Assembly: GCA_012720075.1 (NCBI GenBank)
Contig: JAAXZE010000007.1
Coordinates: 465-64,464, forward strand
DNA: 64,000 bases
Direction of reading: 5' to 3'
Origin: Clostridia bacterium
GTDB lineage: Bacteria; Bacillota; Peptococcia; Peptococcales; BICA1-8
Below the pieces are notes generated by a model. That model saw nothing but the letters and a program-made list of their open reading frames with translations, was not told where the DNA came from and ran no database searches. Shown here piece after piece: positions 1,551-63,533 of the stretch; the stretch's first letter is position 1, and each line of letters starts with the position of its first letter. A program made the position numbers and the translations under genes.

Positions 1551-1700
1551 TATTGATGCATCCGATGAAAGTTAAGCTTTGAAGATGCATCTGCTTTCAA
1601 GCAAAAAGCATGATGCATCCTTTAAGCTAGCTCAGGTGCAAGTGCGTCAAGACTGTTTCACATGCATGAGATGCAACCTAAACACTGGTTACTAGGTTAC
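1551..1700 (+). repeat. Word array: palindromic GATGCATC x3 at 28-29 nt spacing, then the RBS-proximal module CCTAAACACTGGTTACTAGGTTAC
   Basis: GATGCATC at 1555, 1584 and 1612. CATGCATGAGATGCAACC at 1661-1678. The terminal module aligns with the spacers upstream of cof, uvrA and the hydrogenase operon. Confidence 0.7.
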
Positions 1701-4665: not shown

Positions 4666-5484
4666 ATGGATGAAAAAACTTTGGCTTTTTTGAAGGATAA
4701 AGCAAAGACAATTAGCAGGCATATTATAGAAATGACAGGGGCTGCCGGCTCCGGACATCCCGGGGGCTCCCTCTCAGCAGCAGATATCATTACTTATTTA
4801 TATTTTAAGGAACTGAAAATTGATCCCAACAACCCCGATTGGCCTGAAAGGGATCGGTTTGTTTTATCCAAAGGACATGCAGCGCCGGTACTTTATGCCG
4901 CTTTGGCCGAAAGGGGATTTTTCCCCGTCGAAGATTTGGTAACATTACGGAAAATTGACTCCTATCTACAGGGGCATCCCGATATGAAAAGGGTAAAAGG
5001 TGTGGAAATGACCACCGGTTCTTTAGGGACAGGCTTTTCTACTGCAGTAGGGATGGCTTTGGCTGCCAGGATGGATAAAAAGGACAATTTCATTTTCGTT
5101 TTGTTAGGCGACGGGGAAATACAGGAAGGACAAGTTTGGGAAGCTGCTATGGCGGCTGCTCATTATAAATTAGATAATATGATAGCCATCTTGGATTATA
5201 ACGGGTTACAAATAGACGGGCCTGTTTCTGAGGTATTATCTCCCGAACCGTTGCCTGATAAATGGCGGGCTTTTGGTTGGGAAGTCTTGGAGATAGACGG
5301 TCACGATTTTGATGCTATTGAAAAAGCCATTAACAAAGCCAAGGAAGTTAAAGGCAAACCGACAATGATAATCGCCAAGACCATAAAAGGAAAAGGTGTT
5401 TCCTTTATGGAGAATGAAGCGGGGTGGCATGGTTCCGCGCCCAACAAGGAACAGGTGGAAAAGGCCTTGGCTGAATTATCCTAA
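4666..5484 (+). CDS. Transketolase, N-terminal (ThDP-binding) subunit
   Basis: [15 protein letters not shown] and [14 protein letters not shown] motifs. 272 aa is typical of split transketolases. Confidence 0.95.
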
Positions 5485-5494
5485 TTACTTACGG

Positions 5495-5765
5495 GTAAAT
5501 TTATTGGGTCTGATAGTACTCAAGAGTTGAGATATTGCGTCTGACATCTCCTCAATGGTTATATTTTTGGTCTGACAATATTAATTGGTTAACATTTTGA
5601 CCTTTAAAATAGAACGATTTGTATATGTGTATAATTAAATTTTATCAGACGCAAAAGATTGCCTTTTAGAACTTTCTAACCCATGAGTTAGACATCCTGG
5701 CAATTGTCAGACGCAAAAGATAGGCTTGTAGACAAATTATCTGACCCGCAAGATAGACCCTTAAG
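5495..5765. repeat. Palindromic word-array element (GTCTGA / TCAGAC words) inserted between the two transketolase subunit genes
   Basis: GTCTGA at 5508, 5539 and 5570 (31-nt period). The inverse TCAGACGCAAAAGAT is at 5645 and 5707 (62 nt apart), around an AT-rich centre. The right end GACCCGCAAGATAGACCC matches the ends of the uvr spacer elements. Confidence 0.8.
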
Positions 5766-5790
5766 ATAAAAGAAACGGAGGTTTTAATAT

Positions 5791-6732
5791 ATGGAAAGTA
5801 TGGCAACCCGGGATGCCTATGGGAAGGCATTGGTGGAATTAGGTAGGATAAATAAAGATGTGGTAGTTTTAGATGCCGATTTATCCAAATCAACTAAAAC
5901 CGACGGCTTTCAAAAAGAGTTTCCGGAGAGGTTTTTTAACATCGGAATAGCTGAACAAAATTTGATAGGCTGTGCTGCAGGTTTTGCAACTTCGGGCAAA
6001 ATCCCCTTTGCCAGTTCCTTTGCTGTCTTTGCCACCGGCAGGGCCTACGACCAGATTAGAAATTCTGTAAGCTATTCCCACTTAAATGTCAAAATTGCCG
6101 CTTCCCATGCCGGTATCACCGTTGGCGAAGACGGCGGTTCCCACCAAATGCTGGAAGATATAGCGTTGATGCGGGCGGTGCCGGGCATGACTGTTATCGT
6201 ACCCGCTGATGGAGTTGAAACAAAAAAAGCCATATTTGCCGCTGCCCAATATGTGGGACCGGTTTATATAAGACTGGGCAGGCCTAAAGTACCTATCATT
6301 TTCGACGAAGATTATATATTTGCCATTGGTAAAGCAGCTGTCATCAAAGAAGGCTCCGATGTGGCCTTAATGGCTACCGGGATAATGGTCAGCGAGGCCC
6401 TAAAAGCGGCGGAGCTGTTACAAAATCAGGGATTTAGCGCCGCTGTGGTGAACATTAGTACTATTAAGCCCATCGATGCGGAAACTATTACCAAGGTAGC
6501 ACAAAAAACCAAGGCTGTAGTTACCTGTGAAGAGCATAATATTTACGGGGGATTAGGCAGCGCTGTGGCAGAGGTTTTAGTTGAAAATTGTCCTGTTCCC
6601 ATGGAAAGAATAGGTGTGAAAGATGTGTTCGGCCGGTCGGGCAAGCCCCAGGAGCTCATGGAGAAATACGGTTTGACAGCTAAGGATATTGTCGATGCCG
6701 CCTGTAAGGCTATGGCCAGGAAAACAAAGTAA
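5791..6732 (+). CDS. Transketolase, C-terminal (pyrimidine-binding) subunit
   Basis: FNIGIAEQN and EDGGSHQ motifs. 313 aa. GGAGG SD. Confidence 0.95.
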   Translation: MESMATRDAYGKALVELGRINKDVVVLDADLSKSTKTDGFQKEFPERFFNIGIAEQNLIGCAAGFATSGKIPFASSFAVFATGRAYDQIRNSVSYSHLNVKIAASHAGITVGEDGGSHQMLEDIALMRAVPGMTVIVPADGVETKKAIFAAAQYVGPVYIRLGRPKVPIIFDEDYIFAIGKAAVIKEGSDVALMATGIMVSEALKAAELLQNQGFSAAVVNISTIKPIDAETITKVAQKTKAVVTCEEHNIYGGLGSAVAEVLVENCPVPMERIGVKDVFGRSGKPQELMEKYGLTAKDIVDAACKAMARKTK

Positions 6733-9803: not shown

Positions 9804-10976
9804 GTGGCAGGGTTGGATAATGGAAAAAAAAGAATTTGGCAATTTATTGTTACGGTTTTAATATTGATTAGCTTCACAGTAACCTCTTTAGTTGGATTTT
9901 TATTTATCACCAATTTTAAAAACATTGGTCAGCTTATTCAGGTAGGTGCCTTGATTAAAGCTAATTTTTTATGGCCTGTTTCAATAGATGACCTGATTGA
10001 AGGGGCTATTGAAGGAATGGTCAATTCACTGGGAGACAGCTATTCGGTCTACCTGGATCCCCAGGAATTTAAGCAGTTGCAGTCTCATATTCAAGGGGAA
10101 TTTGGCGGTATCGGCATCTATGTCGGCCTCCGGGACAATAAAATTACGGTGGTTGCTCCAATAGAGGGAACTCCCGGCGCTAAAGCCGGAATAAAATCGG
10201 GAGATATAATTGTAAAGATAAACGATAAACCAACGGAAAACATGGATGTTGATCAGGCCGTAGCCATAATGAAAGGTGAGCCGGGCACGGAAGTCAAATT
10301 GACTGTTTACAGGCCCGGGCAGAATGAATATTTGGACTTTAATATTATCAGAGAAATTATTAATGTTCCCACCGTTGAGGGAGATTTATTGGAGGAAAAT
10401 CCCGATATAGCTTATATTAAGATTTCGATGTTTACAACCAATACCGACGAAGACTTTGCGGAGGAACTGAAAAAACTATGGGATAGAGGCTTTAAGGCAT
10501 TGATTATCGATTTGCGTTACAACCCCGGCGGTGACCTTCAAACCGTTGTGAATGTTGCCGGGCAGCTAATTCCGGAAGGCCCTGTTGTCCATATTGTTTC
10601 CAATGATAATAAAACCCAAACTTTAACTGCTCCCGGAAACAATATTAAAGTACCTATGGTGGTATTAATAAATGAAGGCAGCGCCAGTGCTTCGGAAATT
10701 TTAGCCGGGGCCATCAAGGACACCGGTGTAGGCAAACTGGTAGGCACCACCACTTTTGGGAAGGGCATTGTTCAATCCATCTATTTCTTGAATGAAGGCG
10801 CGGGTTTAAAACTTACCACTGCCAAATATTTGACGCCTAATAAAAATGATATTCACGGTAAGGGCATTGAGCCTGATATAGTTGTTCAATTACCGGAATA
10901 TATTCCCGGCCGTGAGGAAGAATTTCAGGATACCCAATTGTTAAAGGCCATCCAAGTGCTGGAAGAGCAAATCTAA
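9804..10976 (+). CDS. ctpA: Carboxy-terminal processing protease (peptidase S41, PDZ domain)
   Basis: N-terminal TM, PDZ (GIKSGDIIVKIND), catalytic Ser region NEGSASASE and Lys region TFGKG. Confidence 0.9.
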   Translation: MAGLDNGKKRIWQFIVTVLILISFTVTSLVGFLFITNFKNIGQLIQVGALIKANFLWPVSIDDLIEGAIEGMVNSLGDSYSVYLDPQEFKQLQSHIQGEFGGIGIYVGLRDNKITVVAPIEGTPGAKAGIKSGDIIVKINDKPTENMDVDQAVAIMKGEPGTEVKLTVYRPGQNEYLDFNIIREIINVPTVEGDLLEENPDIAYIKISMFTTNTDEDFAEELKKLWDRGFKALIIDLRYNPGGDLQTVVNVAGQLIPEGPVVHIVSNDNKTQTLTAPGNNIKVPMVVLINEGSASASEILAGAIKDTGVGKLVGTTTFGKGIVQSIYFLNEGAGLKLTTAKYLTPNKNDIHGKGIEPDIVVQLPEYIPGREEEFQDTQLLKAIQVLEEQI

Positions 10977-10994: not shown

Positions 10995-11148
10995 CTGTAG
11001 CTACAGTTATTAAGGTTAAGGTTTCGCTGCGCTAGGTTAAAGGTTGAGGTTAGAATACAAAAACGTGACATTGTGTCACCGTGCCATCGTGACATCGATT
11101 TTCAGTTGGGAAAGTTGGAATGTAATTCTCAACTCTCCATTCTCAATT
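10995..11148. repeat. Composite intergenic repeat, module order C-B(rc)-A-E-D(rc)
   Basis: CTGTAGCTACAG palindrome at 10995-11006. B module at 11010-11052. A module at 11062-11098, nearly identical to 1508-1545. D module at 11125-11148 is the reverse complement of 17671-17699. Confidence 0.85.
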
Positions 11149-16320: not shown

Positions 16321-17604
16321 TTATTTCTCAGTCCTTTTTCTTTTCCAAAATTTCAATTTGTACAACAAGGAATTATTCCTTTTGGCTAATACTTTGTTTA
16401 AATCTTTTTGCAGGGTTTTTTGGGTATGCAGTATCTCCTCCAGTTTATCCATTACTAATTCCTGGCTGACTTCATTTTTTAACTCGGAAGTCTTTGAAGT
16501 TAGAGAATGAAGAATAATTTCTTCTACAGTAACCTTTTCGCCGGGGCCGGGCTCCTGCAATTGGGTGCCTTTAATTAAATTTCTACCCAATCTTCCGGTA
16601 ACAACGGAGCCGATGGCGTGGGCCGTGATACCCAAGGCTGCCATACCTCCAATGGCGGCCCCTACCTTTTCCACATGGGTTTTGCCCCAAGGTAAATAGG
16701 TATCCGGTAAATGTTTGAAATAGGGCATCATACCATCGGGGAAATGAGGACTGGCACAACCAATGCAGGGAACTCCCGCTTCAACGGGCCAGTTAACATG
16801 GTTGTTCCACTGGCGGATGGGGCAATCGGCATAAGTGACCGGTCCTTTGCAGCCGATTTTATAGAAACAGCCTTCATCCCCAGGATATTGGGCAAATTTT
16901 CCATCATTAAAATCGGAACGCCTGTTGCACAGGTCGTGGATGGTTTTGCCGAAAAACATGGTCGGGGAATTATAATCGTTTAATTCAGGCTCACCGTACA
17001 TTATAAGGTGGGCCAGAGTACCGATCATCCAATCGGGATGGGAGGGACAGCCCGGGATGTTAATAACTTTGCGGTCCAGTACTTCGGAAACGGCAACGGC
17101 TTTGGAAGGGTTGGGGTAAGCAGCACCCGGTCCGCCAAAGGCGGCACAATCACCTACGGCCATGACATATTTGGCATGGGGAGCCAGCTCTTTTAAAAGT
17201 TCGATGCCCGGTATCAGACGGCCTTTTCGTTCCATTACCAAGTTGTATCTTCCTTTATCTCGGGTAACTACGGAACCTTCTATTATTAAAATGAACCGGC
17301 CGGAGTCATTTTCCACTGTTCTTTGCAAATTCTCAATGGCCAAGTCCCCTTGGGACTGCATAAATAACCAGTGGTAGCGAAGGTCGATCATTTCTAAAAG
17401 CAGTTTTTTTAAGTCCGGGTCGAAAGTATTATCCAGTGAGATGGTTTCTCCGGTACAAGAGCCCAATTCAAGCCAGATCACCGGTGTTCGGTCTATTTCC
17501 CCTTGGGCTAAGGCCGCAAAAACCGGTGACTTTAAAAGACCGGCCAAACTTATCCCCATAGTGGTTTGCATACATAGTTTTATAAATTCTCTTCTACTTA
17601 GCAC
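16321..17604 (-). CDS. [NiFe] hydrogenase small subunit, Tat-exported, with an unusually long C-terminal tail
   Basis: Twin-arginine signal MLSRREFIK. FeS cysteine clusters (GSCTGE, GDCAAFGG, CPIRQW..CIGC). TM anchor GAAIGGMAALGITAHAIGSVV, then about 85 charged residues. GTG start after GGGGAG. Confidence 0.9.
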   Translation of the reverse strand: MLSRREFIKLCMQTTMGISLAGLLKSPVFAALAQGEIDRTPVIWLELGSCTGETISLDNTFDPDLKKLLLEMIDLRYHWLFMQSQGDLAIENLQRTVENDSGRFILIIEGSVVTRDKGRYNLVMERKGRLIPGIELLKELAPHAKYVMAVGDCAAFGGPGAAYPNPSKAVAVSEVLDRKVINIPGCPSHPDWMIGTLAHLIMYGEPELNDYNSPTMFFGKTIHDLCNRRSDFNDGKFAQYPGDEGCFYKIGCKGPVTYADCPIRQWNNHVNWPVEAGVPCIGCASPHFPDGMMPYFKHLPDTYLPWGKTHVEKVGAAIGGMAALGITAHAIGSVVTGRLGRNLIKGTQLQEPGPGEKVTVEEIILHSLTSKTSELKNEVSQELVMDKLEEILHTQKTLQKDLNKVLAKRNNSLLYKLKFWKRKRTEK

Positions 17605-17630
17605 AATTTATTTCTCCCCGCCTAAAATAT

Positions 17631-17799
17631 TAGTGTTTTAGTGTGTGAGTGTGAAAGTGTGTAAGATTAGTTGAGAATTGAGAATGAGAGTTGAGAATGT
17701 TCCTTTCCACTTCTTCCAACAATCCATTTTTTCAGCTAAATATATTAACCTTAACCTAGTGAAGCGCAACCTTAACCTTAAAAAACTGTAGAACTGCAG
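17631..17799. repeat. Composite intergenic repeat, module order F-D-E-B-C, in the leader of the hydrogenase operon
   Basis: F GTGTGTGAGTGTGAAAGTGTGTAAG. D TTGAGAATTGAGAATGAGAGTTGAGAATG. B TTAACCTTAACCTAGTGAAGCGCAACCTTAACCTTA. C AAAAACTGTAGAACTGCAG. Collinear with the reverse complement of 10995-11148 apart from the missing A module. Confidence 0.85.
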
Positions 17800-17970
17800 C
17801 CTCGGAAAAGCTGTGCTTTGAAAATAATTCAAAGCTAGACTTTTTCTAATTGGTATCTTCTCCAATATTTACATGTAATATTTATTTTTTTCGATTGAGG
17901 TTTCAAAGAAACGGGTAATAAATTATGATATAATCACAACTTAGAAGAAGATAAGCGGTGGTGGAAACTT

Positions 17971-19953
17971 ATGACAGACAAGTTTAAATTGGTATCTGAT
18001 TTCAGGCCCCGGGGCGATCAGCCCAAAGCCATTGCCCAATTGGTGGACGGATTATATAGAGGCTTGCCCAAGCAAACCCTTTTAGGTGTAACAGGTTCGG
18101 GCAAAACTTATACTATGGCCAATGTCATTGCTGAGGTTAACCGGCCTACCCTGGTAATTGCCCATAATAAGACTTTGGCGGCTCAGCTTTGCAGTGAGTT
18201 CAAGGAATTTTTCCCTGAAAACGCCGTGGAGTATTTTGTCAGCTATTATGACTATTACCAGCCGGAGGCATACATTCCCTATACCGATACTTATATTGAA
18301 AAGGATGCGCAAATTAATGAAGAAATTGAAAAGTTGAGACACTCGGCTACCTCGGCTCTTTTTGAAAGACGGGATGTAATTATTGTGGCCAGTGTTTCTT
18401 GCATATATGGTTTAGGTTCCCCCGAGGATTATAAAAACCAAACCTTATCCCTTAGGGTAGGGCAGGAATACGATAGGGATAAGATTTTAAGAAAACTGGT
18501 GGATATTCAATATGAACGGAATGACGTTAACTTTGTGAGGGGTACTTTCCGGGTGAGGGGCGATGTCATCGAGGTATTGCCGGCTTCGCTGACGGAAAAG
18601 GCTTTAAGAATTGAAATGTTTGGCGATGAGATAGAGCGGATTTTGGAGATTGATACAGTTACCGGCGAGATAATAGGTCAGCGCCAACATGTAAGTATTT
18701 TCCCGGCAACCCATTATATTACCGCTCCTGAATATTTAGAAACCGCTATCCAAAATATCGAAAAGGAATTGGAAGAAAGTCTTCAGGAACTGCGCAGCCA
18801 GAATAAGCTCCTGGAGGCCCAAAGGCTGGAACAGAGGACCCGTTATGACCTGGAAATGATCCGAGAGGTAGGTTTTTGTACCGGGATAGAAAACTATTCC
18901 CGCCATTTAACGGGAAGAAAACCGGGGGAACCCCCCTATACTCTTTTGGACTATTTTCCTGAGGATTATTTGATAATGATTGATGAATCCCATGTTACCA
19001 TTCCACAAATAGGCGGGATGTATGAAGGAGACCGGTCCCGCAAAACCAATTTGGTAGAGTACGGTTTTAGGCTGCCCTCGGCCTTGGATAACAGACCTTT
19101 AAAATTCCATGAATTCGAAGAAAAAATCGGGCAGACAATTTTTGTTTCCGCAACTCCCGGTCCTTATGAGCTAAAACACAGCAGCCAGATTGTGGAACAA
19201 ATTATCAGGCCTACCGGTTTGGTTGACCCTGAAGTAGAGGTTAGACCGGTCAAAGGTCAGATTGATGACCTCTTTGACGAAATAAAGAACAGAGTGGAAC
19301 GGGGCGAAAGGGTGCTTATTACTACCCTTACTAAAAAAATGGCTGAGGACCTGACTGATTATTTTAAAGAGGCCGGTCTTAAGGTTCGCTATCTTCACTC
19401 AGAAATAAAAACCATTGAAAGAATGGAAATTTTAAGAGATTTGCGCCTGGGCGTTTTTGATGTTTTAGTAGGAATAAACCTATTGCGGGAAGGGTTGGAT
19501 TTACCGGAGGTCTCCTTGGTGGCTATTTTGGATGCCGATAAAGAAGGCTTTCTCCGCTCGGACCGTTCATTAATCCAGACTATCGGTCGGGCTGCCCGAA
19601 ATGTTAACGGCAAGGTTATCATGTATGCCGATAAAATCACCGGCTCCATGGAGCGAGCCATCAATGAGACTAACCGGAGGCGAGCTTTACAAATAGCTTT
19701 TAATAAGGAGCATAATATTACTCCCCAATCCGTTAAAAAATCGGTGCGGGATATTATCGAAGCCACTAAAGTGGCTGAAAAAGAACCTGAATATAAGCTA
19801 TCCCAGCAAAATGTGGATAAGATGTCTAAGGATCAATTAAAGAAAATGATCAAGGATCTGGAAAAGGAAATGCAGGAAGCGGCCCGGGCTTTGGAATTCG
19901 AACGAGCCGCTTTGATCAGGGATTTGATTATCGAACTCAAAGGGAAACTATAG
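17971..19953 (+). CDS. uvrB: Excinuclease ABC subunit B
   Basis: [12 protein letters not shown], helicase motifs and a C-terminal UVR domain ([11 protein letters not shown]). Confidence 0.97.
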
Positions 19954-19954
19954 G

Positions 19955-20290
19955 CTTTGGGGCTATTTTTGGGGTCGGCATGACGGCGTGACGTCTTTGG
20001 GGTTACAATGCACGTCAGTATGACGTCTTACAGGTTATGTCACAGGTCCGCATGACGGCCTACAGGTTATATTTTAGGTCCGCATAATGGTTTAGGTGAT
20101 AATTTACAGAAAATATTTATATTTTGCTGACCCATGATATTGGCTTGGTAGACGTCATGCTGACCAAAAAGTAGCGGAGGAGCCGTCATGCCGTCCCAAA
20201 ATGTTGCCTGTTAGCCGTCATGCAGACCCTAGAGTTTAACCCGTTAGCTGTAATGCTTGACCCTAAAAGATGACCCACTAGCTACAGGAG
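19955..20290. repeat. Imperfect palindrome of about 335 nt built from four degenerate ~32-nt units per arm (core GCATGACG / CGTCATGC)
   Basis: Left-arm cores at 19978, 20018, 20050 and 20082. Right-arm inverse cores at 20153, 20184, 20216 and 20249. Symmetry centre near 20120. Confidence 0.85.
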
Positions 20291-20299
20291 GGAATAGAC

Positions 20300-23128
20300 A
20301 TGGCCAAAGATAAAATCATAATCAAAGGAGCGAGGGTAAATAACCTTAAAAACATAGATATTGAAATACCCAGGGATAAATTTGTAGTAATAACCGGTCT
20401 CAGCGGCTCGGGAAAGTCTTCTTTAGCTTTTGATACCATTTATGCTGAAGGACAGCGCAGATATGTGGAATCTTTATCTGCCTATGCCCGGCAGTTTTTG
20501 GGCCAGATGGATAAGCCTGACGTTGATTATATCGAGGGCTTATCACCGGCCATATCCATTGACCAGAAAACTACCAACCGTAATCCCCGGTCAACGGTGG
20601 GCACGGTAACGGAAATCTACGATTATCTTCGGTTGTTATTTGCCCGGATTGGAGTACCCCACTGTTATAAATGCGGCACGCCCATAGCCCAGCAAACCGT
20701 CCAGCAGATGGTAGACCAACTGATGAGCTATCCTGAAAGAACCAAATTGCAGATTTTAGCGCCGGTTATCCGGGGACGAAAAGGTGAGCACAGGAAAGTA
20801 CTGGAGGATTTAAAAAAAAGCGGTTATGTGCGGGTTATGGTAAATGGAGAGTTGAGGGAATTAAGTGAAGAAATCATCTTGGATAAAAATAAAAAGCATA
20901 ACATTGAGGTGGTGGTTGACCGGGTAATTATCAAGGAAGGTGTGGAAAGCCGGTTGGCAGATTCGCTGGAAACGGCCTTAAATTTATCGGAAGGCGTAGT
21001 CAATGTGGATATTATTGACGGGGAAAGGCTGGTTTTTAGCCAGAATTTTGCCTGTGTTGACTGCGGTATCAGTTTTCCGGAGATTACCCCTCGAATGTTT
21101 TCCTTTAACAGTCCTTATGGGGCCTGCCCCGAATGTGACGGTTTAGGAACAAAACTGGAAATAGAGCCGGATTTGGTTATACCGGACTGGACTTTGTCCC
21201 TGGCTGAAGGAGCCATAGCCCCCTGGAGTAAAAATACCAACGGTTATTATCAGCAAATTTTGGCGGCGGTGGGTAAGCATTATGGTTTCAGCATGCATAC
21301 TCCTGTCGGCAAATTGCAGCCGGAACATATTCATGTTATTTTATATGGCTCCGGCAATGAAAAAATTAGAATAAAATATACCAATATGTATAATGAAACC
21401 CGGGTTTATGACTCTGTCTTTGAAGGGGTCATCCCCAATCTCTACCGGCGGTATCTGGAGACCCAGTCCGAGTTGTCTAAGGCCGAGACGGAACAGTATA
21501 TGACCAATAAACCCTGTCCCCGATGCAAAGGCGCTCGGCTGAAACCTGAGGTTTTGGCGGTAAAAATCGCCGGAAAAAATATTTCGGAAGTTACGGATAT
21601 GACGGTTTCAGAAATTAAGAATTTCTTTGATAATTTAAAGCTTACGGAGAGAGAGTTACTTATTGGCCGTCAGGTTCTGAAAGAAATTAAGGAAAGGTTG
21701 AACTTTCTGGTCACGGTAGGTTTGGATTATTTGACCTTAAGCAGGACTGCCGCTACATTGTCCGGAGGTGAAGCCCAGCGGATCAGACTGGCGACCCAGA
21801 TAGGGTCAGGGTTGGTCGGTGTTCTTTATATCCTGGACGAGCCCAGCATCGGTTTGCATCAACGGGATAATGACCGTTTGATTGAGGCTTTAAAACATTT
21901 GCGGGATATCGGCAATACTTTAATCGTTGTGGAACATGACGAAGACACTATGCTGGCCGCCGATCATATCATAGATATAGGTCCGGGGGCCGGAGCCCAT
22001 GGCGGGAAGGTAGTAGCCCAGGGTACCATCGAAGAAATCAAGGCGGTTAAAGAATCCATTACCGGCCAATATCTATCCGGTGCCAAGAAAATTCCCGTTC
22101 CGTTAATCAGGCGCCCTCCCAATGGCAAATGGATAAGGGTCAAAGGCGCCACTGAAAACAATCTGAAAAATCTGGATGTCGCTTTTCCTTTAGGGGTTTT
22201 CACCTGTGTCACCGGGGTTTCAGGTTCCGGCAAAAGTACCCTGGTCAATGAAATCCTTTATAAAGGCCTTATAAGGAAACTGTATAAAAACTCCAAAGTG
22301 GAACCCGGTCAACATATTTCCATAGAAGGTGCGGAGCACCTGGATAAAATAATCGACATAGACCAGTCCCCCATCGGCCGGACGCCCCGGTCTAATCCGG
22401 CTACCTATACATCGGTTTTTGATGCCATCAGGGAGATTTTTGCCCAAACTCCTGAGGCCCGGATGCGGGGCTATAAACCCGGTCGCTTTAGTTTTAACGT
22501 AAAAGGGGGCCGCTGTGAGGCATGCCGGGGAGATGGAATAATTAAAATTGAGATGCATTTTCTGCCTGACGTTTATGTGCCTTGTGAAGTATGTAAGGGT
22601 CAGCGCTATAATCGGGAAACCCTGGAGATTAAATATAAAGGGAAAAATATTGCCCAAGTTTTGGATATGACGGTAGATGAGGCTGTTGAATTTTTCCAAA
22701 ACCTGCCTAAAATCTATCGCAAGCTGAAAACTCTACAGGATGTGGGGTTGGGTTATATCCGCCTGGGTCAGCCGGCTACCACTTTATCGGGCGGTGAAGC
22801 CCAAAGGGTTAAGTTGGCTACCGAACTTTCTCGCCGTAGTAATGGTAAAACCCTGTATATTCTGGATGAGCCTACAACGGGCCTGCATATAGCCGATATT
22901 CATAAACTTTTGGGGGTATTGGCCCGTTTAGTTGACGCCGGAGATACGGTAGTAGTTATCGAGCATAATTTGGATGTAATAAAATGTGCCGACTATGTCA
23001 TTGATTTAGGACCGGAAGGTGGCAATAAAGGGGGACAAATCATTGCTATCGGAACACCCGAAGAGATAGCCGGTGTAGAGGAGTCTTATACGGGACAATT
23101 CTTGCGCAAAGTGCTGAGCAAGGGATGA
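20300..23128 (+). CDS. uvrA: Excinuclease ABC subunit A
   Basis: Two ABC modules ([18 protein letters not shown]; two LSGGEAQR signatures) and zinc-finger cysteines. Confidence 0.97.
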
Positions 23129-23365
23129 GCATGACGGCTCTAAAGCTATTCTGCACGTCAGTATTAAAACAATAACTAGCTTGATTACTACAGGCAGCTT
23201 GCGCAAAAAGTATTATAAAAAAACCGACCTAATATTTTACTTGGTAGACGTCACACCGACCCAATGTTTAACTCCGGTGACGTCACTCCGGCCTTATATC
23301 TAAACCCGTGAGCCGTCATGCTGACCCGAAAGATTGCAAAGCAGCCATCATGCCACCCAAGGGAG
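23129..23365. repeat. Second member of the GCATGACG/CGTCATGC element family, in the uvrA-uvrC spacer
   Basis: GCATGACGGC starts immediately after the uvrA stop. CTTGGTAGACGTCA (23240) is shared with 20144. GCCGTCATGCTGACCCGAAAGAT lies at 23302-23324. An internal ACTAGCTTGATTACTACAGG module lies at 23175-23194. Confidence 0.8.
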
Positions 23366-23374
23366 GTGACTTTC

Positions 23375-25234
23375 TTGTTGCAAGACAAAATTAACGCTTT
23401 ACCCGCGAAACCCGGAGTGTATCTAATGAAAAATGCCGAAGGGGAGATCATTTATGTGGGTAAAGCCGTTTCGCTGAAAAACAGGGTTAAATCCTATTTT
23501 CAAAGTAAAAGGCATGATTCGGCCAAAACCAGGGCTTTAGTTAAAAATATCGCCGATTTGGAATACATTATTACCGATAATGAACTGGAAGCCTTAATCT
23601 TGGAATGCAATTTGATTAAGAAACACAGGCCGAAATATAACATTAGCCTTAAAGATGATAAAACTTACCCTTATCTTAAGATAACCGCCGAAGAATTTCC
23701 CCGGGTTATTGTAACCCGTAAGGTTTATAAAGACGGAGCAAAATATTTCGGCCCCTATACCAGTGCCACAAGCCTCAGGGAAACCGTTGAATTATTAAAA
23801 AAGCTGTTTCCTTTCCGCAGTTGCAATCAAAAGGTATTTTCCAATGAGAGGCCTTGTCTGAACGCCTATATCAAAAGATGTCTGGCCCCCTGTCAGGGGG
23901 GTATTACCAGGGAACAGTACGGTGAAATCATTAAACAGGTTGAACTTTTTTTGGAAGGCAAACAAGAGGCTTTGATAATAAAGCTGGAAAATGAAATGGA
24001 ACAGGCGGCATTGAACCTGGAGTTTGAGCGGGCGGCCCAATTAAGGGACCAGATAATTAGTATTAAACAGGTTATAGAAAAACAGAAAATTGTTTCCGCC
24101 GGTGATGAAGACCAGGATGTTATGGCTATGGCCAGAGGTTTTAACGAAGTTTGTGTCCAGGTTTTTTTCATCAGAGGTGGAAAACTGATTGGCCGGGAGA
24201 ATTTCTTTTTAAAAGGGACCGATGATATGGAGCGTTCCGAAGTGCTGGAAGCTTTTATAAAGCAATACTACATTCAGCAGGATTTTGTACCCAAGGAAAT
24301 ACTGGTAGAAACCGAATTACCTGAAGTAAAGGTTCTGGAACAATGGCTTTCAGAAAAGAAGGGACAACGGGTATATATCAAGGTCCCCAAAAAAGGAGAA
24401 AGAAAGGAACTCTTGGAACTGGTAGCCAAAAATGCCTTAGAGGCTATGGAAAAAGCGGACCTGGAAAGAGAGCAGAAGAAAAGTATGACTGAAGGAGCTT
24501 TATTGGAATTGCAAAAAGAACTGGCTTTGCCCAAGCTGCCCCTTCGTATTGAATGTTATGATATATCCAATACCCAAGGAACGGAAACTGTAGCTTCAAT
24601 GGTAGTCTTTGAAGGCGGTAAGCCTAAAAAGGACCAATACCGCAGGTTCAGGATAAAAACGGTGGAAGGCCCTAATGACTTTGCCAGTATGTACGAGGTA
24701 ATAACCCGCAGATTTCGTAACGCCAGGGAAGAAAACAACTCCGGCGACCAAGGGAAATTTTCATCTTTGCCCGATTTGGTCATTATTGACGGTGGTAAAG
24801 GACAATTGCAGTCTGCCAGGAAAGCCATGGAGGAGCAGGGGTATGCTTATATCCCCACCTATGGCCTGGCCAAGCGGGAGGAATGGCTTTTTTTCGAAGA
24901 GGAATCGGAGCCCATTATCCTACCCCGTTCTTCCAAGGCCCTCTTTCTTCTGCAGCGGATCAGAGACGAAGCTCACCGTTTTGCTATAACTTATCACAGA
25001 AGCTTACGGGGTAAAAGGAACTTGGCTTCCATCCTGGATGATATCCATGGTATTGGGGAGAAAAGAAAGAAAAAACTCCTGCAGCATTTCGGCTCTTTTA
25101 AAAAAATTCAATCGGCAAGTATTGAAGAGCTTCAAGAGGTAGAAGGAATTAACCGCAAAGTTGCCGAAGCAGTATACGATTACCTTCGCACTCACCAGGA
25201 TTTATTGCTTAGAACTAGAAATAGTGAGGATTAA
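23375..25234 (+). CDS. uvrC: Excinuclease ABC subunit C
   Basis: GIY-YIG (GVYLMKNAEGEIIYVGKA), UVR domain, endonuclease and HhH2 C-terminus. TTG 23375 lies 8 nt after GGAGG; the listed ORF start 23318 lies inside the repeat. Confidence 0.93.
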   Translation: MLQDKINALPAKPGVYLMKNAEGEIIYVGKAVSLKNRVKSYFQSKRHDSAKTRALVKNIADLEYIITDNELEALILECNLIKKHRPKYNISLKDDKTYPYLKITAEEFPRVIVTRKVYKDGAKYFGPYTSATSLRETVELLKKLFPFRSCNQKVFSNERPCLNAYIKRCLAPCQGGITREQYGEIIKQVELFLEGKQEALIIKLENEMEQAALNLEFERAAQLRDQIISIKQVIEKQKIVSAGDEDQDVMAMARGFNEVCVQVFFIRGGKLIGRENFFLKGTDDMERSEVLEAFIKQYYIQQDFVPKEILVETELPEVKVLEQWLSEKKGQRVYIKVPKKGERKELLELVAKNALEAMEKADLEREQKKSMTEGALLELQKELALPKLPLRIECYDISNTQGTETVASMVVFEGGKPKKDQYRRFRIKTVEGPNDFASMYEVITRRFRNAREENNSGDQGKFSSLPDLVIIDGGKGQLQSARKAMEEQGYAYIPTYGLAKREEWLFFEEESEPIILPRSSKALFLLQRIRDEAHRFAITYHRSLRGKRNLASILDDIHGIGEKRKKKLLQHFGSFKKIQSASIEELQEVEGINRKVAEAVYDYLRTHQDLLLRTRNSED

Positions 25235-25239
25235 ATTAA

Positions 25240-25392
25240 AGATTACGCCAACATTGTTGGCTATCTTACGCCTTGCTAGATTAAAGGTTGAGGTTAAGGT
25301 TAAAGGGTATTAACGTGACATCATGATACCAACCATTTCAATTTTTTTTAAGCTTTCGATGTCACGGCGTCACGGTGACACGATGTCACAAA
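25240..25392. repeat. Composite intergenic repeat, module order B(rc)-E(rc)-A(rc)
   Basis: Reverse complement is collinear with 2888-3043. Contains the palindrome GCCAACATTGTTGGC and a duplicated TTACGCC. Confidence 0.85.
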
Positions 25393-25432
25393 ATCTTTGT
25401 CATCAGTAACTATTTATAAGGGGGTGTGTGGA

Positions 25433-25774
25433 ATGAGAGGGTGGGTTGTTCGTTGGATTCTTAACGGAGTGGCTTTACTGCTTACTTCCGCTCTGATATC
25501 AGGTATCGAAGTCAATGGCATCCTGGCGGCTTTATTTGCAGCCCTGATATTAGGTATTGTAAATGCCGTTATTCGACCCATCATTTTACTTCTTACCTTG
25601 CCAATTAATTTACTTACTTTGGGCTTGTTTACTTTAGCGATTAACGGGTTTATGCTGAAGATTACCAGCATTGTGATAAACGGTTTTGAAGTCGGAGGTT
25701 TTTGGGCTGCTACAATTGGAGCTTTAGTGTTATCCATTATCAGTTCCATTTTGAATGCCCTTGTTATCGACTAA
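25433..25774 (+). CDS. Small 4-TM membrane protein (phage holin family 4 / DUF360-like)
   Basis: MRGWVVRWILNGVALLLTS.. with four hydrophobic helices. ATG 25433 follows GGGGG; the listed ORF begins earlier inside the repeat. Confidence 0.7.
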   Translation: MRGWVVRWILNGVALLLTSALISGIEVNGILAALFAALILGIVNAVIRPIILLLTLPINLLTLGLFTLAINGFMLKITSIVINGFEVGGFWAATIGALVLSIISSILNALVID

Positions 25775-25777
25775 AAA

Positions 25778-25895
25778 TCAGTGTGTAAGTATGACATCTT
25801 AAATTTTATTCTGATTTTCAGTGTGTTTGTGAGTAAGAGATTTTTTAATACTATAGCACTAACCCACTTAAACACTTATGCACTCACTAGCAACT
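25778..25895. repeat. Palindromic word element (GTGTGTAAG/GTGAGTAAG left, CACTTAAACAC/CACTCAC right) ending at the cof RBS
   Basis: Left CAGTGTGTAAG (25780) and CAGTGTGTTTGTGAGTAAG (25820). Right ACCCACTTAAACACTTATGCACTCACTAGCAAC (25862-25894). Confidence 0.7.
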
Positions 25896-25910
25896 TACGA
25901 GGAGGATTAT

Positions 25911-39799: not shown

Positions 39800-39807
39800 G
39801 ATGATGA

Positions 39808-39867
39808 GGTTAAGGTTAAGGCTAAGGTTAAGGCTAAGGTTAAGGTTAAGGCTAAGGTTAAGGTTAA
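39808..39867 (+). repeat. Hexanucleotide tandem repeat GG(T/C)TAA x10
   Basis: Ten contiguous units starting 9 nt after the gpmI stop. The unit is the reverse-complement word of repeat module B (AACCTTAACC). Confidence 0.95.
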
Positions 39868-39959
39868 GGTTTTACTTAGGTATAAAAGATATATTTTCAT
39901 TAGGTTTAGCTTTTTTGGATTATAGGTAAGCAAACATAGGGGTATAGTAAGCTAATAAA

Positions 39960-41382
<1,423 letters not shown>

Positions 41383-58166: not shown

Positions 58167-58279
58167 GAGGTTTAGGCTAAGGTTAAGGTTATATTGTATT
58201 TAATATAATAGCTTTATTCCTTTCTCAACCTTAACCTAGCGTAGCGAAACCTTGATCTTAATTTGTTTTAAACTGTCAC
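58167..58279. repeat. Repeat family copy (hairpin of B-module words, then modules B and C)
   Basis: TAGGCTAAGGTTAAGGTT (58173-58190) is inverted relative to AACCTTAACCTAGCGTA (58227-58243). CTCAACCTTAACCTAGCGTAGCGAAACCTTGATCTTA matches 17746-17780. Confidence 0.8.
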
Positions 58280-61195: not shown

Positions 61196-61550
61196 GGGGG
61201 TGTAATGGTTTCGACGGGGGAATTCGGTGGCTTGAGAAGCGAGTCGAGGTCGCACTGGCTCGTTAAACGTTGCACAAAAAATAAACGCTAAAAACAATAA
61301 CTTAGCTTTAGCTGCTTAATTGCAGTCTAACCTCCTACTTGCCTTTGCCTGTGGGGCGAGCAAGGGGGTCACATTAGCAGGCTACTCTTAAGTAACCGCC
61401 TTGTAGCTTAAGGGGAAACTTACAGGGCTGGCCGATGGAAATCCTGTTTGTGGGAGTTCCTGAGGCGAGATGCCAAAACACAAACTACGCTCGTAGATGC
61501 TCAGGTGGTCGATCTTCCGGACAGGGGTTCGACTCCCCTCACCTCCACCA
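61196..61550 (+). ncRNA. ssrA: tmRNA (SsrA), predicted tag reading frame GCT AAA AAC AAT AAC TTA GCT TTA GCT GCT TAA (AKNNNLALAA)
   Basis: The 5' GGGGGTG pairs with the 3' CACCTCCACCA acceptor stem, including G3:U. T-arm GGGGTTCGACTCCCC. The tag ORF ends ..LALAA-TAA. Located directly after smpB. Confidence 0.93.
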
Positions 61551-63022
61551 GCAAAGGTCACAATCGTGTCTATGTCGATTGTGTTTTCATAGACGATTAC
61601 TTTTTTAACATAAGCTTGGATGATGCGTTTTTGCTCTTCCGGGCTTTTATTTTTTATATCAGCGTCTTTTTGAAGATACTTCCGTATCATATCTTCTGTA
61701 GGTGCATGCATTTGAGCCTGTAGTTTTGCTTCCTCAAGTTTTATTGTGAGATTGGCCTTTTTAGTTTCCAACTCGTCCATTTTCTCTTTCATGGACTGAT
61801 GGAACATCCCAGCAGCTATAGCGTTCACAATATTGTTGATCTCCGTTTGCACTCCGGCCAATTGATCGGTAAACAACTTTATATCCCGATTAATCTCCTT
61901 GCTTTGAGAGGCGGCATATTCAGATATTTTCACCACCAGTCTTTCTATAGCTTCCGGGGAAAAAACATTTTCTTCAAGGTGTTTAATAACAATATTTTCC
62001 ACATAGTTTTTGTTTATCGCTTTCATATCGCAAGCCTTAGTTCTTTTCCTAGTGGAGCACTCATAACTCACATACAGGTCCTTATTTCTGCCAGCGAACT
62101 TCCTTGTCCCTGTCATGACACCACCGCATTTACCGCAGAAAATTAATCCAGATAAAAGATATATTTCTTTTGCTGAATTTGCACCCTTCTTATTCTTTTC
62201 CATACGTTTTTGCACCGCCTCCCATATTTCATCTGATATTATTCTGGGTATACCGCCCTCAATTCTGATGATTTCATCCTCGTTTTTGCTCTTGTGGTGA
62301 TTGCGCTTACCGTTAATCTTGCTGGCTGAACGATTAAATATATAAACCCCCCGGTATTTTTCGTTCTTAAGTATGTCGTGAATGCTATTTTTACCGAATG
62401 GTCTGCCGGTTTGGGTTTTATATCCTTGGCTATTTAGGACATGAATTATTTCACTGTAACCTTTTCCAGCAGCATACATTTCAAATATAGTCCGTACAAT
62501 ACGAGCTTCATGCTCATTGATTATGTACGTTTTGTCATTGGCAACATCGTATCCCAGCGGTGGCCTTCCACCAGTATGTTTGCATTGTAGGGCTGTTTCC
62601 TTCATGCCTTTCATGACTTCCCGCGCAAGGTTGCGGCTGTAATATTCGGCCATACCTTCCAAGACAGATTCCAGAATGATGCTTTCTGGACTGTCATCAA
62701 GGTGTTCAAGAACCGATATGAGACGCACGCTATTCTTTTTGAGCTGCCTTTTGTAGAAGGCTGAATCATATCTATCCCGAGAAAACCGATCTAGTTTATG
62801 CACAATCACAACGTCAAACAGGCCCAATGCGCTGTCTCGTATCATTTGAAGAAAACCAGGCCTGTCATCCGTTGTGGCTGATTTGGCTTCATCGGTATAT
62901 ATTTTTACTATTTGCATATTATTTCGATTACAATACTCTTTTATAGCCCGAAGCTGGGCTTCAATACTTTCCTCTCGCTGATTGTCACTAGAATATCTTG
63001 CGTATGCTGCAGCTTTAAACAT
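61388..63022 (-). CDS. Large serine recombinase; its last ~55 codons are antisense to the 3' part of ssrA
   Basis: Catalytic region AAAYARYSSDNQ, resolvase domain, recombinase domain, zinc ribbon CGKCGG..YECSTRKRTKAC and a coiled-coil. ATG 63022 follows GGGAGGGG. The ORF has no stop until 61388, 163 nt into the tmRNA gene. Confidence 0.85.
   Translation of the reverse strand: MFKAAAYARYSSDNQREESIEAQLRAIKEYCNRNNMQIVKIYTDEAKSATTDDRPGFLQMIRDSALGLFDVVIVHKLDRFSRDRYDSAFYKRQLKKNSVRLISVLEHLDDSPESIILESVLEGMAEYYSRNLAREVMKGMKETALQCKHTGGRPPLGYDVANDKTYIINEHEARIVRTIFEMYAAGKGYSEIIHVLNSQGYKTQTGRPFGKNSIHDILKNEKYRGVYIFNRSASKINGKRNHHKSKNEDEIIRIEGGIPRIISDEIWEAVQKRMEKNKKGANSAKEIYLLSGLIFCGKCGGVMTGTRKFAGRNKDLYVSYECSTRKRTKACDMKAINKNYVENIVIKHLEENVFSPEAIERLVVKISEYAASQSKEINRDIKLFTDQLAGVQTEINNIVNAIAAGMFHQSMKEKMDELETKKANLTIKLEEAKLQAQMHAPTEDMIRKYLQKDADIKNKSPEEQKRIIQAYVKKVIVYENTIDIDTIVTFAGGGEGSRTPVRKIDHLSIYERSLCFGISPQELPQTGFPSASPVSFPLSYKAVT
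61559..61588 (+). terminator. Probable ssrA terminator hairpin (also a candidate recombination-site dyad)
   Basis: CACAATCG-TGTCTATGT-CGATTGTG followed by TTTTC, 8 nt after the CCA end. It lies inside the antisense recombinase ORF. Confidence 0.6.
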
Positions 63023-63065
63023 GATTTTCCCCTCCCAAAACCAGAACTGATGTTCGTATACATGG

Positions 63066-63533
63066 TTAAAAAAAATTATCAATGTTTTCTATAATTCCTA
63101 ATGGATCAAAACAAATCCAGTATTCTCCCACACGGCAGTAGATGCCGTATTTTTCTTTGTAATATTTCACAGCATCACATAGAAACCTTTCTGTTACACC
63201 TAGGTACTCTGCTAGTTCGTGTTTAGTTCTGATGCCGGCTTTGTATGCTTCCACTAGCTTGTCCAAAGGAACAAGTTTCTGGTAGGCCAAGGTTCTTGCT
63301 CTACGCTCCTGCTTACGATTCTCTATTTTTGATTGGTCTAGGATATTGCCAGCAGTAGTGTAATAATGGCCGAGTTCTTCGGCGAGAACACAGCATTTCT
63401 CTGCAGTGGTCTCTAAGTTTTTGTTTAGACCAATCACCTTATCATAATACAAACCCTTTATCTTTCCTTTCAATGGAAGGTAAACAACTTCTATGCATTC
63501 CTTTTCTGCTTCAATGAGTAAGGTTTCATGCAT
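63066..63533 (-). CDS. ImmA/IrrE-like (DUF955) protein with variant EELGH motif and a C-terminal HTH-like segment
   Basis: CCVLAEELGHYYT sits where the family normally has HExxH. TKHELAEYLGVTERFL resembles an HTH. Family assignment is from memory of similar clostridial mobile-element proteins. Confidence 0.5.
   Translation of the reverse strand: MHETLLIEAEKECIEVVYLPLKGKIKGLYYDKVIGLNKNLETTAEKCCVLAEELGHYYTTAGNILDQSKIENRKQERRARTLAYQKLVPLDKLVEAYKAGIRTKHELAEYLGVTERFLCDAVKYYKEKYGIYCRVGEYWICFDPLGIIENIDNFF

Follow-up and report, generated by a model that had tools for sequence, protein, structure and literature searches.

The uvrA-uvrC spacer of a Clostridia bacterium holds a degenerate member of a non-coding foldback-array family that extends across the clade

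Two repeat elements flank uvrA in the uvrB-uvrA-uvrC operon of a Clostridia bacterium, which raises the question of whether the element between uvrA and uvrC belongs to the same family as the one between uvrB and uvrA, and whether such elements have anything to do with the repair genes beside which they lie. The window, which is the whole 64,000-nucleotide stretch of DNA analysed here, has a G+C content of 41%, and the three genes lie downstream of a divergently oriented NiFe-hydrogenase cluster. No LexA box (Cheo-type CGAACNNNNGTTCG, up to two mismatches) was found upstream of uvrB (17605-17970) or near the uvr genes. Far from the operon, on the - strand, are a large serine recombinase ORF (61388-63082, with Resolvase, Recombinase and Zn_ribbon_recom domains) and an M78/IrrE-type peptidase ORF (63066-63533); the two ORFs abut or overlap the 3' end of the tmRNA gene (61196-61550), and the region (61196-63533) looks like an integrated element at ssrA. 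The elements in the uvrB-uvrA and uvrA-uvrC spacers are referred to as E1 and E2 respectively, and the operon is organised as follows.

17971-19953, + strand: uvrB
19954-20299: E1, in the uvrB-uvrA spacer
20300-23128, + strand: uvrA, with stop codon TGA at 23126-23128
23129-23374: uvrA-uvrC spacer of 246 bases, of which 23129-23360 is E2
23361-23366, + strand: uvrC ribosome-binding site GGGAGG
23375-23377, + strand: uvrC start codon TTG (MLQDKINALPAKPGVY), 8 nt 3' of GGGAGG
23375-25234, + strand: uvrC, placed by the N-termini of eight orthologous UvrC proteins (listed as 23318-25234)

The listed start of uvrC at ATG 23318 falls within a repeat core of E2. UvrC homologues start with M(S/T/L)LQDK, and since the N-termini of the eight orthologous proteins match at TTG 23375, this is the true start; the earlier note had thus rightly called 23318 an artefact.

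E2 itself has an unequal pair of arms around an AT-rich centre. Units in the left and right orientations are termed L-type and R-type.

23129-23164, + strand: left-arm remnant, one L-type unit with core GCATGACGGC at 23129-23138
23165-23218: AT-rich centre without any unit-HMM match, replacing the further left units and the loop of complete elements
23219-23358, + strand: right arm, a ...CCGACC remnant at about 23219-23229 followed by four inverse R-type units
23247-23261, 23279-23293, 23312-23326 and 23344-23358: cores of the R-type units, spaced 32, 33 and 32 nt
23123-23140 and 23310-23327 (+ strand): inverted pair I7, GGATGAGCATGACGGCTC (which contains the uvrA stop) and GAGCCGTCATGCTGACCC

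The boundaries are those given in the earlier note: the left core GCATGACGGC begins at the first base past the uvrA TGA, and the last core ends at 23358, with GGGAGG beginning at 23361. Units were identified with a 32-nt profile HMM trained on units of Peptococcaceae bacterium BICA1-8 alone, without window sequence; BICA1-8 is the closest named relative, with a UvrA identity of 84%. Matches in E2 are at 23302-23327 (E=1e-4), 23234-23263 (3e-4) and 23331-23354 (0.18), and the left unit matches on the opposite strand at 23129-23151 (5e-3). Taken alone, the GTGACGTCAC unit at 23267-23286 lacks significance (E=9), yet it is in phase, and Tandem Repeats Finder (TRF) reports a period of 32 across 23223-23290. 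The four inverse units described earlier are therefore of unequal standing, with two well preserved, one marginal and one recognisable by position only. All of the strings quoted for them are present, although four coordinates were off by 1-10 nt: GACGTCACACCGACCC is at 23247 as given, GTGACGTCACTCCGGCC at 23277 (not 23276), GCCGTCATGCTGACCC at 23312 (not 23302) and GCCATCATGCCACCC at 23344 (not 23343). Among the strings said to be shared with E1, CTTGGTAGACGTCA is present at 20144 and 23240, GACCCGAAAGAT is at 23323, and GACCCTAAAAGAT is at 20259 rather than 20260.

The I7 pair (18 nt, 89% complementary, 169 nt apart) is the sole long inverted repeat remaining in E2 and forms the base of its predicted RNA fold, which is marginal (-60.7 kcal/mol, z=-2.4) and better on the antisense strand. 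No promoter-like or terminator-like sites are reported in E2. With only one clear left unit, one inverted pair and a weak fold, E2 is a decayed and not a complete member of its family.

E1 is nearly complete: four direct units lead into an AT-rich centre, beyond which lie four to five inverse units.

19954-20091, + strand: left arm, L-type cores at 19973-19987, 20013-20027, 20045-20059 and 20077-20091
20092-20125: AT-rich centre, the loop of the foldback
20126-20285, + strand: right arm, R-type cores at 20151-20165, 20182-20196, 20214-20228 and 20246-20262

TRF finds a period of 32 across 20020-20085 in the left arm, the right arm stops about 10 nt short of the ribosome-binding site AGGAGGG of uvrA (20286-20292), and the entire element is predicted to form one long hairpin (-127.3 kcal/mol, z=-5.1). 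The relationship to E2 is evident in several ways. The best local alignment of the two scores 43, against 17.6±2.3 (maximum 29) in 500 dinucleotide shuffles, and is not chance similarity; the 13 best matches of the unit HMM in the window all lie inside E1 and E2; and GCATGACGGC at one mismatch or fewer occurs 10 times in 64 kb, against 1.74 expected, with 8 of the 10 in the two uvr spacers. The left remnant of E2 (23129-23164) is 72% identical to 19986-20021 of E1 (repeat family D2), and the two share GCACGTCAGTAT exactly (23152-23163 and 20009-20020). Consistent with the earlier proposal, the alignment, the independent HMM matches and the common 32-nt phase make E2 a second member of the family of E1, and we conclude with high confidence that E2 (23129-23360) is a degenerate member of a family of non-coding foldback arrays that extends across the clade. 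E1 and E2 share no exact match longer than 14 nt. RecA needs roughly 20-30 nt of identity for efficient homologous recombination; as the match falls short of this, loss or inversion of uvrA by recombination of E1 with E2 is not expected, and nothing points to such an event.

The family is defined by its unit and by its phase. The type A unit has the consensus TTAGGTCGGCATGACGGCTAATGGGTTAAATT and consists of a 15-nt core (GGTCnGCATGACGKC) and a variable 17-nt remainder; within the core G9 is conserved at 100% and T12 and A14 at 97%, while the 17-nt inter-core segments are highly diverged. Across all loci 53 of 55 adjacent units are spaced by 31-33 nt. A complete copy is 200-450 nt long, with 3-7 direct units (32-33 nt), a short AT-rich centre and 3-6 inverse units, the outer L and R units being inverse complements. 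Copies either run from a stop codon to about 10-20 nt before the next ribosome-binding site or sit 3' of a gene, the first left unit beginning 0-20 nt past the stop codon; in relative L145 the stop codon is within the first core. The elements are GC-richer than their surroundings (0.45-0.47 versus 0.41). One-arm arrays are common, and the numbers of units in the two arms are unbalanced (7 versus 4 in BICA1-8 E1, L129; about 2 versus 5 in L146). Single units, whether consensus or real, fold no better than shuffles (-0.4 to -4.3 kcal/mol, z +0.4 to -1.8).

A sister subfamily, type B, has a unit of about GGGTGAACATATTGCGTCTGACACTTACTTCT; types A and B have in common a GGGT...TGAC framing and the 32-nt phase, and they occur together on contig L138 and in the window. 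The window copy of type B fills the spacer between two transketolase subunit genes (4666-5484 and 5791-6732):

5485-5780, + strand: type B foldback array, core TTGCGTCTGACA / TGTCAGACGC, with about 3-4 L and then 4 R units

It has a predicted RNA fold of -74.4 kcal/mol (z=-3.9) and a 31-nt periodicity over 5483-5579, and the orthologous spacer in BICA1-8 (L035 4724-4771) is 48 nt only. Units of about 30 nt with a GATGCATC core (window 1554-1680, L139 150-200, L143 7960-8030, L142 10240-10260) often adjoin type A arrays and may be a third unit class of the superfamily.

At the two uvr spacers the arrays are widely shared among relatives. An exact look-up of the window's UvrA gave no match, but a homology search returned a 100%-identical UvrA protein (P0002), and the window's own species is present in one Logan run (99.95% identity) with E1 and E2 unchanged. 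The top-scoring match to the window's UvrA is another protein, P0001 (1548 aa, L121 1874-6520), which has duplicated UvrA_inter / UvrA_DNA-bind domains and a different neighbourhood; it was left out for its different gene arrangement. Relatives at 78-91% UvrA identity mostly have arrays in the same two spacers, even though 4-fold sites in uvrA are saturated between the genomes examined (0.32-0.38 identity), and the order uvrB-uvrA-uvrC is kept in every relative examined, including those without one of the two elements. The two spacers range from 60 to about 480 nt, as follows (uvrB-uvrA / uvrA-uvrC, in nt).

Window: 346 / 246
L129: 443 / 360
L122: 241 / 484
L123: 69 / 285
L126: 69 / 139
L131: 457 / 75
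L148: 60 / 231
L151: 294 / 397

Type A arrays are at the same uvr positions in BICA1-8, L142/L140, L146 and L151. In the uvrA-uvrC spacer the array is of type A in the window, L129, L142 and L151 and of type B in L122, L123 and L148. Some relatives lack one of the arrays flanking uvrA, the spacer having shrunk to 60-75 nt with one unit-like remnant; this is so at the E1 site of L123 and L148 and at the E2 site of L131. E1 of the window and E1 of BICA1-8 align colinearly with a score of 105, and the two BICA1-8 elements score 128 against each other, which is higher than either against its window ortholog (105 and 34).

The family has no particular tie to uvr genes or to DNA repair, and its presence beside uvrA is incidental. 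The window has three arrays and BICA1-8 at least three (two in L129, one in L035), including type A units 3' of a transketolase gene (L035). A specific two-unit pattern matched eight metagenome contigs, all of low G+C, with six non-uvr loci; several metagenome contigs have two arrays at non-uvr sites, and the neighbours of metagenome copies include genes for a response regulator, FBP aldolase, LysO, YpeB and tetrapyrrole methylase, as well as holB and genes for DUF327, radical-SAM and ZIP transporter proteins. The PHP-rapZ spacer is 44 nt in the window and 15 nt in L148, and contains type B arrays in L123 and L131. In all, about 450 kb of sequence from the clade was examined. A scan of a genome collection with the looser pattern GCCGTCATGC N18-26 GCCRTCATGC gave more than 119 stretches, and among the matches listed all but L035 are high-GC noise. 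The proposal that uvrA is bracketed by related elements thus stands insofar as E1 and E2 are related and their right arms have the same + strand orientation, but the same family also lies beside many unrelated genes. Several contigs end in arrays (L140 at its end, L144 at its start, L146/L147 at their end, 32 nt past the uvrA stop), and L150 has a run of N at 9842-9941, an assembly gap within an array; such breaks fit a repeat family abundant enough to disrupt assembly.

Other short repeats are also present in these genomes. Tandem arrays of the hexamer AGGTTA / TAACCT (up to 10.8 copies) are in window spacers at 39807-39871, 11030-11058, 25284-25303 and 58168-58191, with inverse copies at 17755-17790 and 58228-58262, some of the arrays forming inverse pairs; the class is also found in relatives (L138 1150-1260, L139 90-115). 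Further short tandem repeats are in window spacers at 1510-1543, 11064-11097, 25313-25395, 40046-40075 and 17630-17699. An octamer like CGTGACAT, repeated four times, has two near-identical copies and an inverse set 3' of uvrC, and the window spacers also hold fourfold repeats of the heptamer CACAAGT/CACTAGT, of TTAGTGTG and of TTGAGAA. Dozens of tandem CAGGGCA/CAGATTA-type heptamers occupy L131 17700-17960, with similar arrays in relatives. The spacer heptamer arrays recall the intergenic heptamer repeats of cyanobacteria and Beggiatoaceae (PMC4679880).

Comparison of near-identical strains shows that the arrays differ where the flanking genes are unchanged. L140 and L142 (99.4-99.7% identical) differ by a 98-nt deletion of exactly three units between ATGCTGACC repeats. 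Relative to L123, with which its uvrA is 100% identical, L126 has lost a 178-nt inner hairpin, bounded in L123 by TTGTCAG...CTGACAA, and has gained one unit. In L127 the inner ~200 nt of the PHP-rapZ array are replaced, with no difference in the outer units. In E1 of BICA1-8 (L129) the left arm is built from three copies of a 64-nt double unit that the right arm lacks, showing that the arms expand independently. Only internal changes were seen between near-identical strains, with no insertion polymorphism of a whole element. No target-site duplication could be defined at four sites (the transketolase 3' end, tktN-tktC, uvrB-uvrA and PHP-rapZ), there being no clean insertion junction because neighbours differ or unit-like remnants persist in the short spacers. 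Neither a transposase nor another candidate mobilising gene was found among the ORFs adjoining any copy, and so none of these ORFs is a RAYT, the IS200/IS605-type tyrosine transposase that accompanies REP sequences.

These changes leave the question of what is conserved. When arms of different elements were paired as chimeras, native partners ranked from 1st to 8th of 8; native arms pair no better than foreign ones, so that compensation specific to an element is unsupported. Of 10 elements, 8 show better folding and a higher number of G·U pairs on the sense than on the antisense strand. No RNA covariation was found, and promoter-like and terminator-like sites are no commoner in 17500-25900 than in shuffles. 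Because single units are unfolded and native arms are unprivileged, the conserved feature is the unit and its spacing rather than an element-specific structure; this fits ongoing spread or homogenisation from a shared pool, and it also fits a trans-acting factor.

The foldback-array family is apparently undescribed. Rfam covariance models gave no match in the window region at E<=10 or in five related loci at E<=0.1, plasmid and phage BLAST searches gave no match, and six matches among viral contigs are all unrelated. In the literature, the core strings are in no paper found, BICA1-8 is named in none, and nothing was found on REP-like repeats in Peptococcaceae. Two conventional classes were considered and rejected. 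The arrays are not CRISPRs, as their inter-core segments are homologous from unit to unit, the whole unit is 32 nt and the arms are inverted; nor are they intrinsic terminators, as neither E1 nor E2 contains a terminator-like site.

The BOX elements of Streptococcus pneumoniae and S. suis (boxA-boxBn-boxC) are composite, hairpin-forming intergenic repeats of Bacillota with variable tandem internal modules, the length in each strain tracking module number, and they are often co-transcribed with their neighbours and have no transposase of their own (PMC3049150); in all of these respects the arrays are similar. In BOX, however, it is the distinct terminal A and C modules that pair, and the tandem boxB modules are central with little role in the stem (PMC3049150), whereas the arrays, compared by description, lack terminal modules and have the tandem units as both of their arms (L^n ... 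R^n). The host clades also differ. MITEs such as Correia, ERIC, RUP and Nezha are likewise small, non-coding, multi-copy and strongly base-paired, with inverted termini, and are inserted in intergenic regions and operons (PMC3049150). The arrays share with them terminal inverted repeats, small size and many copies at unrelated loci, but MITEs are of defined length, end in simple terminal inverted repeats and are flanked by target-site duplications, whereas the termini of the arrays are whole phased subrepeat arrays, and the elements are highly variable in length and GC-richer than the surroundings.

REP, BIME and REPIN sequences, in a survey of REPs that reported no Bacillota (PMC3733652), are short conserved clade-specific intergenic units with several families per genome, are clustered, often as inverse pairs able to form larger hairpins, lie between co-directional or convergent genes and persist vertically for long periods, all of which is true of the arrays. 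REP units, however, each form a stem-loop of 20-40 nt that carries GTAG or CGTC as an unpaired tag (PMC3733652), and the array units do not fold; BIME clusters alternate in orientation and the arrays are nested, with all direct and then all inverse units. Membership of the REP/REPIN class was rejected, as single units are not palindromes and do not fold (z about 0), and although CGTC is present inside the array core (GCCGTCATGC, GACGTC) there is no stem-loop for it to tag.

Two further systems have arms or repeats of a similar form. Eukaryotic Foldback (FB) transposons have long inverted arms of tandem short subrepeats, with variable arms and an unstable centre. The arrays resemble them in form only, FB elements being eukaryotic, kilobase-sized and in some cases equipped with coding sequence, and no homology is implied; we know of no described bacterial counterpart. 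Plasmid iterons and the ends of Tn7 and Mu are repeated 15-22 bp protein-binding sites, helically phased and sometimes in inverse sets. Those sites are found at origins of replication or at the termini of large coding elements, unlike the arrays, which have nothing between their arms and are dispersed in housekeeping operons.

The reading we favour, with a probability of about 0.55, is that the family is a selfish, non-autonomous repeat whose presence in operon spacers is tolerated, rather than a regulator of the uvr genes. We infer with moderate confidence that copies would reach unrelated spacers by mobilisation in trans, by ectopic gene conversion or by both, processes that would also keep the unit consensus uniform. 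A resident array would then grow and shrink by slippage or unequal exchange between units, its foldback centre could be lost or swapped via hairpin-provoked rearrangements, and one arm may decay, as the left arm of E2 appears to have done. A complete copy on mRNA could fold into one long hairpin without occluding the ribosome-binding site, and any influence on uvr expression, for instance through cleavage by RNase III or a block to exonucleases, would be incidental. The element would be tolerated in the uvrB-uvrA-uvrC operon because coding sequence and ribosome-binding sites are untouched. Persistence in the same spacers, the conserved core and the strict phase are equally compatible with recognition of the units by a host factor.

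Such a factor is central to the first alternative, which we regard as unlikely, that the units are binding sites of a lineage-specific DNA-binding protein (a nucleoid or chromosome-organising factor, or a dedicated recombinase or transposase) and the arrays cooperative binding platforms. The 32-33 bp phase corresponds to three helical turns, which would place all cores on one face of the DNA; the phase is held in 53 of 55 spacings although the inter-core segments are highly diverged, and it is the core sequence itself, not just complementarity, that is conserved despite saturated synonymous sites. One-arm arrays incapable of forming a hairpin, units without structure of their own and foreign arms that pair as well as native ones are all as expected of binding sites. 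Simple tandem duplication also yields a strict phase, however, two subfamilies with different cores coexist in one genome, many copies are decaying, with the array lost at uvr spacers of L123 (69 nt), L148 (60 nt) and L131 (75 nt), and no candidate protein was identified.

It is similarly doubtful that the elements are a selected RNA structure of the uvrBAC transcript, a long intercistronic hairpin that would stabilise or process the mRNA, or would place the upstream stop codon beside the downstream start and thereby keep translation coupled over a long spacer. The placement would suit such a role, the left arm lying 0-20 nt past the stop and the right arm ending 10-20 nt before the ribosome-binding site, and complete copies fold far better than shuffles (z=-5.1 and -3.9). 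There are no internal terminators, so the element is probably co-transcribed, and effects on mRNA fate are known for REP, ERIC, BOX and Correia elements (PMC3049150). The sense-strand folding and G·U excess in 8 of 10 elements is weak evidence in the same direction, and this strand asymmetry could stem from compositional skew. Under a purely structural role the core sequence would not be conserved, nor does such a role accord with the marginal fold of E2 and its preference for the antisense strand, the unbalanced arms, the existence of one-arm arrays or the failure of the chimeric-arm comparison to show element-specific compensation.

It is very improbable that uvrA is a cassette, mobile or active in recombination, whose deletion, inversion or exchange is promoted by E1 and E2 as flanking direct repeats. 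The elements do share an orientation and flank uvrA exactly, and in BICA1-8 E1 and E2 are more alike than orthologs, so that some exchange between them is possible. Against this, synteny of uvrB-uvrA-uvrC is kept in all relatives with or without the elements, no uvrA-less arrangement was seen among them, the same elements lie beside many unrelated genes, and the longest exact match of E1 and E2 is only 14 nt. Chance likeness of short GC-rich motifs can be dismissed almost entirely, for although the cores are short and the loose two-core pattern matched more than 119 unrelated high-GC loci among the matches listed, the alignment score lies 11 standard deviations above shuffles, matches of the independent model are confined to E1 and E2, the 32-nt phase holds, and orthologous copies are colinear in other genomes.

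Whether selfish or not, the family has a distinct architecture for bacterial interspersed repeats, with nested phased arrays of 32-nt units as both foldback arms, in a poorly studied clade of subsurface or bioreactor Bacillota (Peptococcaceae-like). Near-identical strains show unit slippage, loss of the hairpin centre and its replacement side by side. For annotation, the arrays create false start codons such as that of uvrC at 23318, inflate intergenic space within operons and break short-read assemblies; what is understood of nucleotide excision repair is unchanged by them. The contrast between decaying copies and a long-conserved core and phase points to a putative trans-acting partner, and a tentative extension of this is that the arrays are cis sites of a putative dedicated enzyme or binding protein reading 15-bp cores three helical turns apart. 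If so, this would explain the survival of the core and the 32-33 nt phase despite saturated synonymous sites, the partner would co-evolve with the subfamily (type A versus type B), and the family would be either the bacterial equivalent of foldback transposons or a domesticated Bacillota system akin to REP/RAYT.
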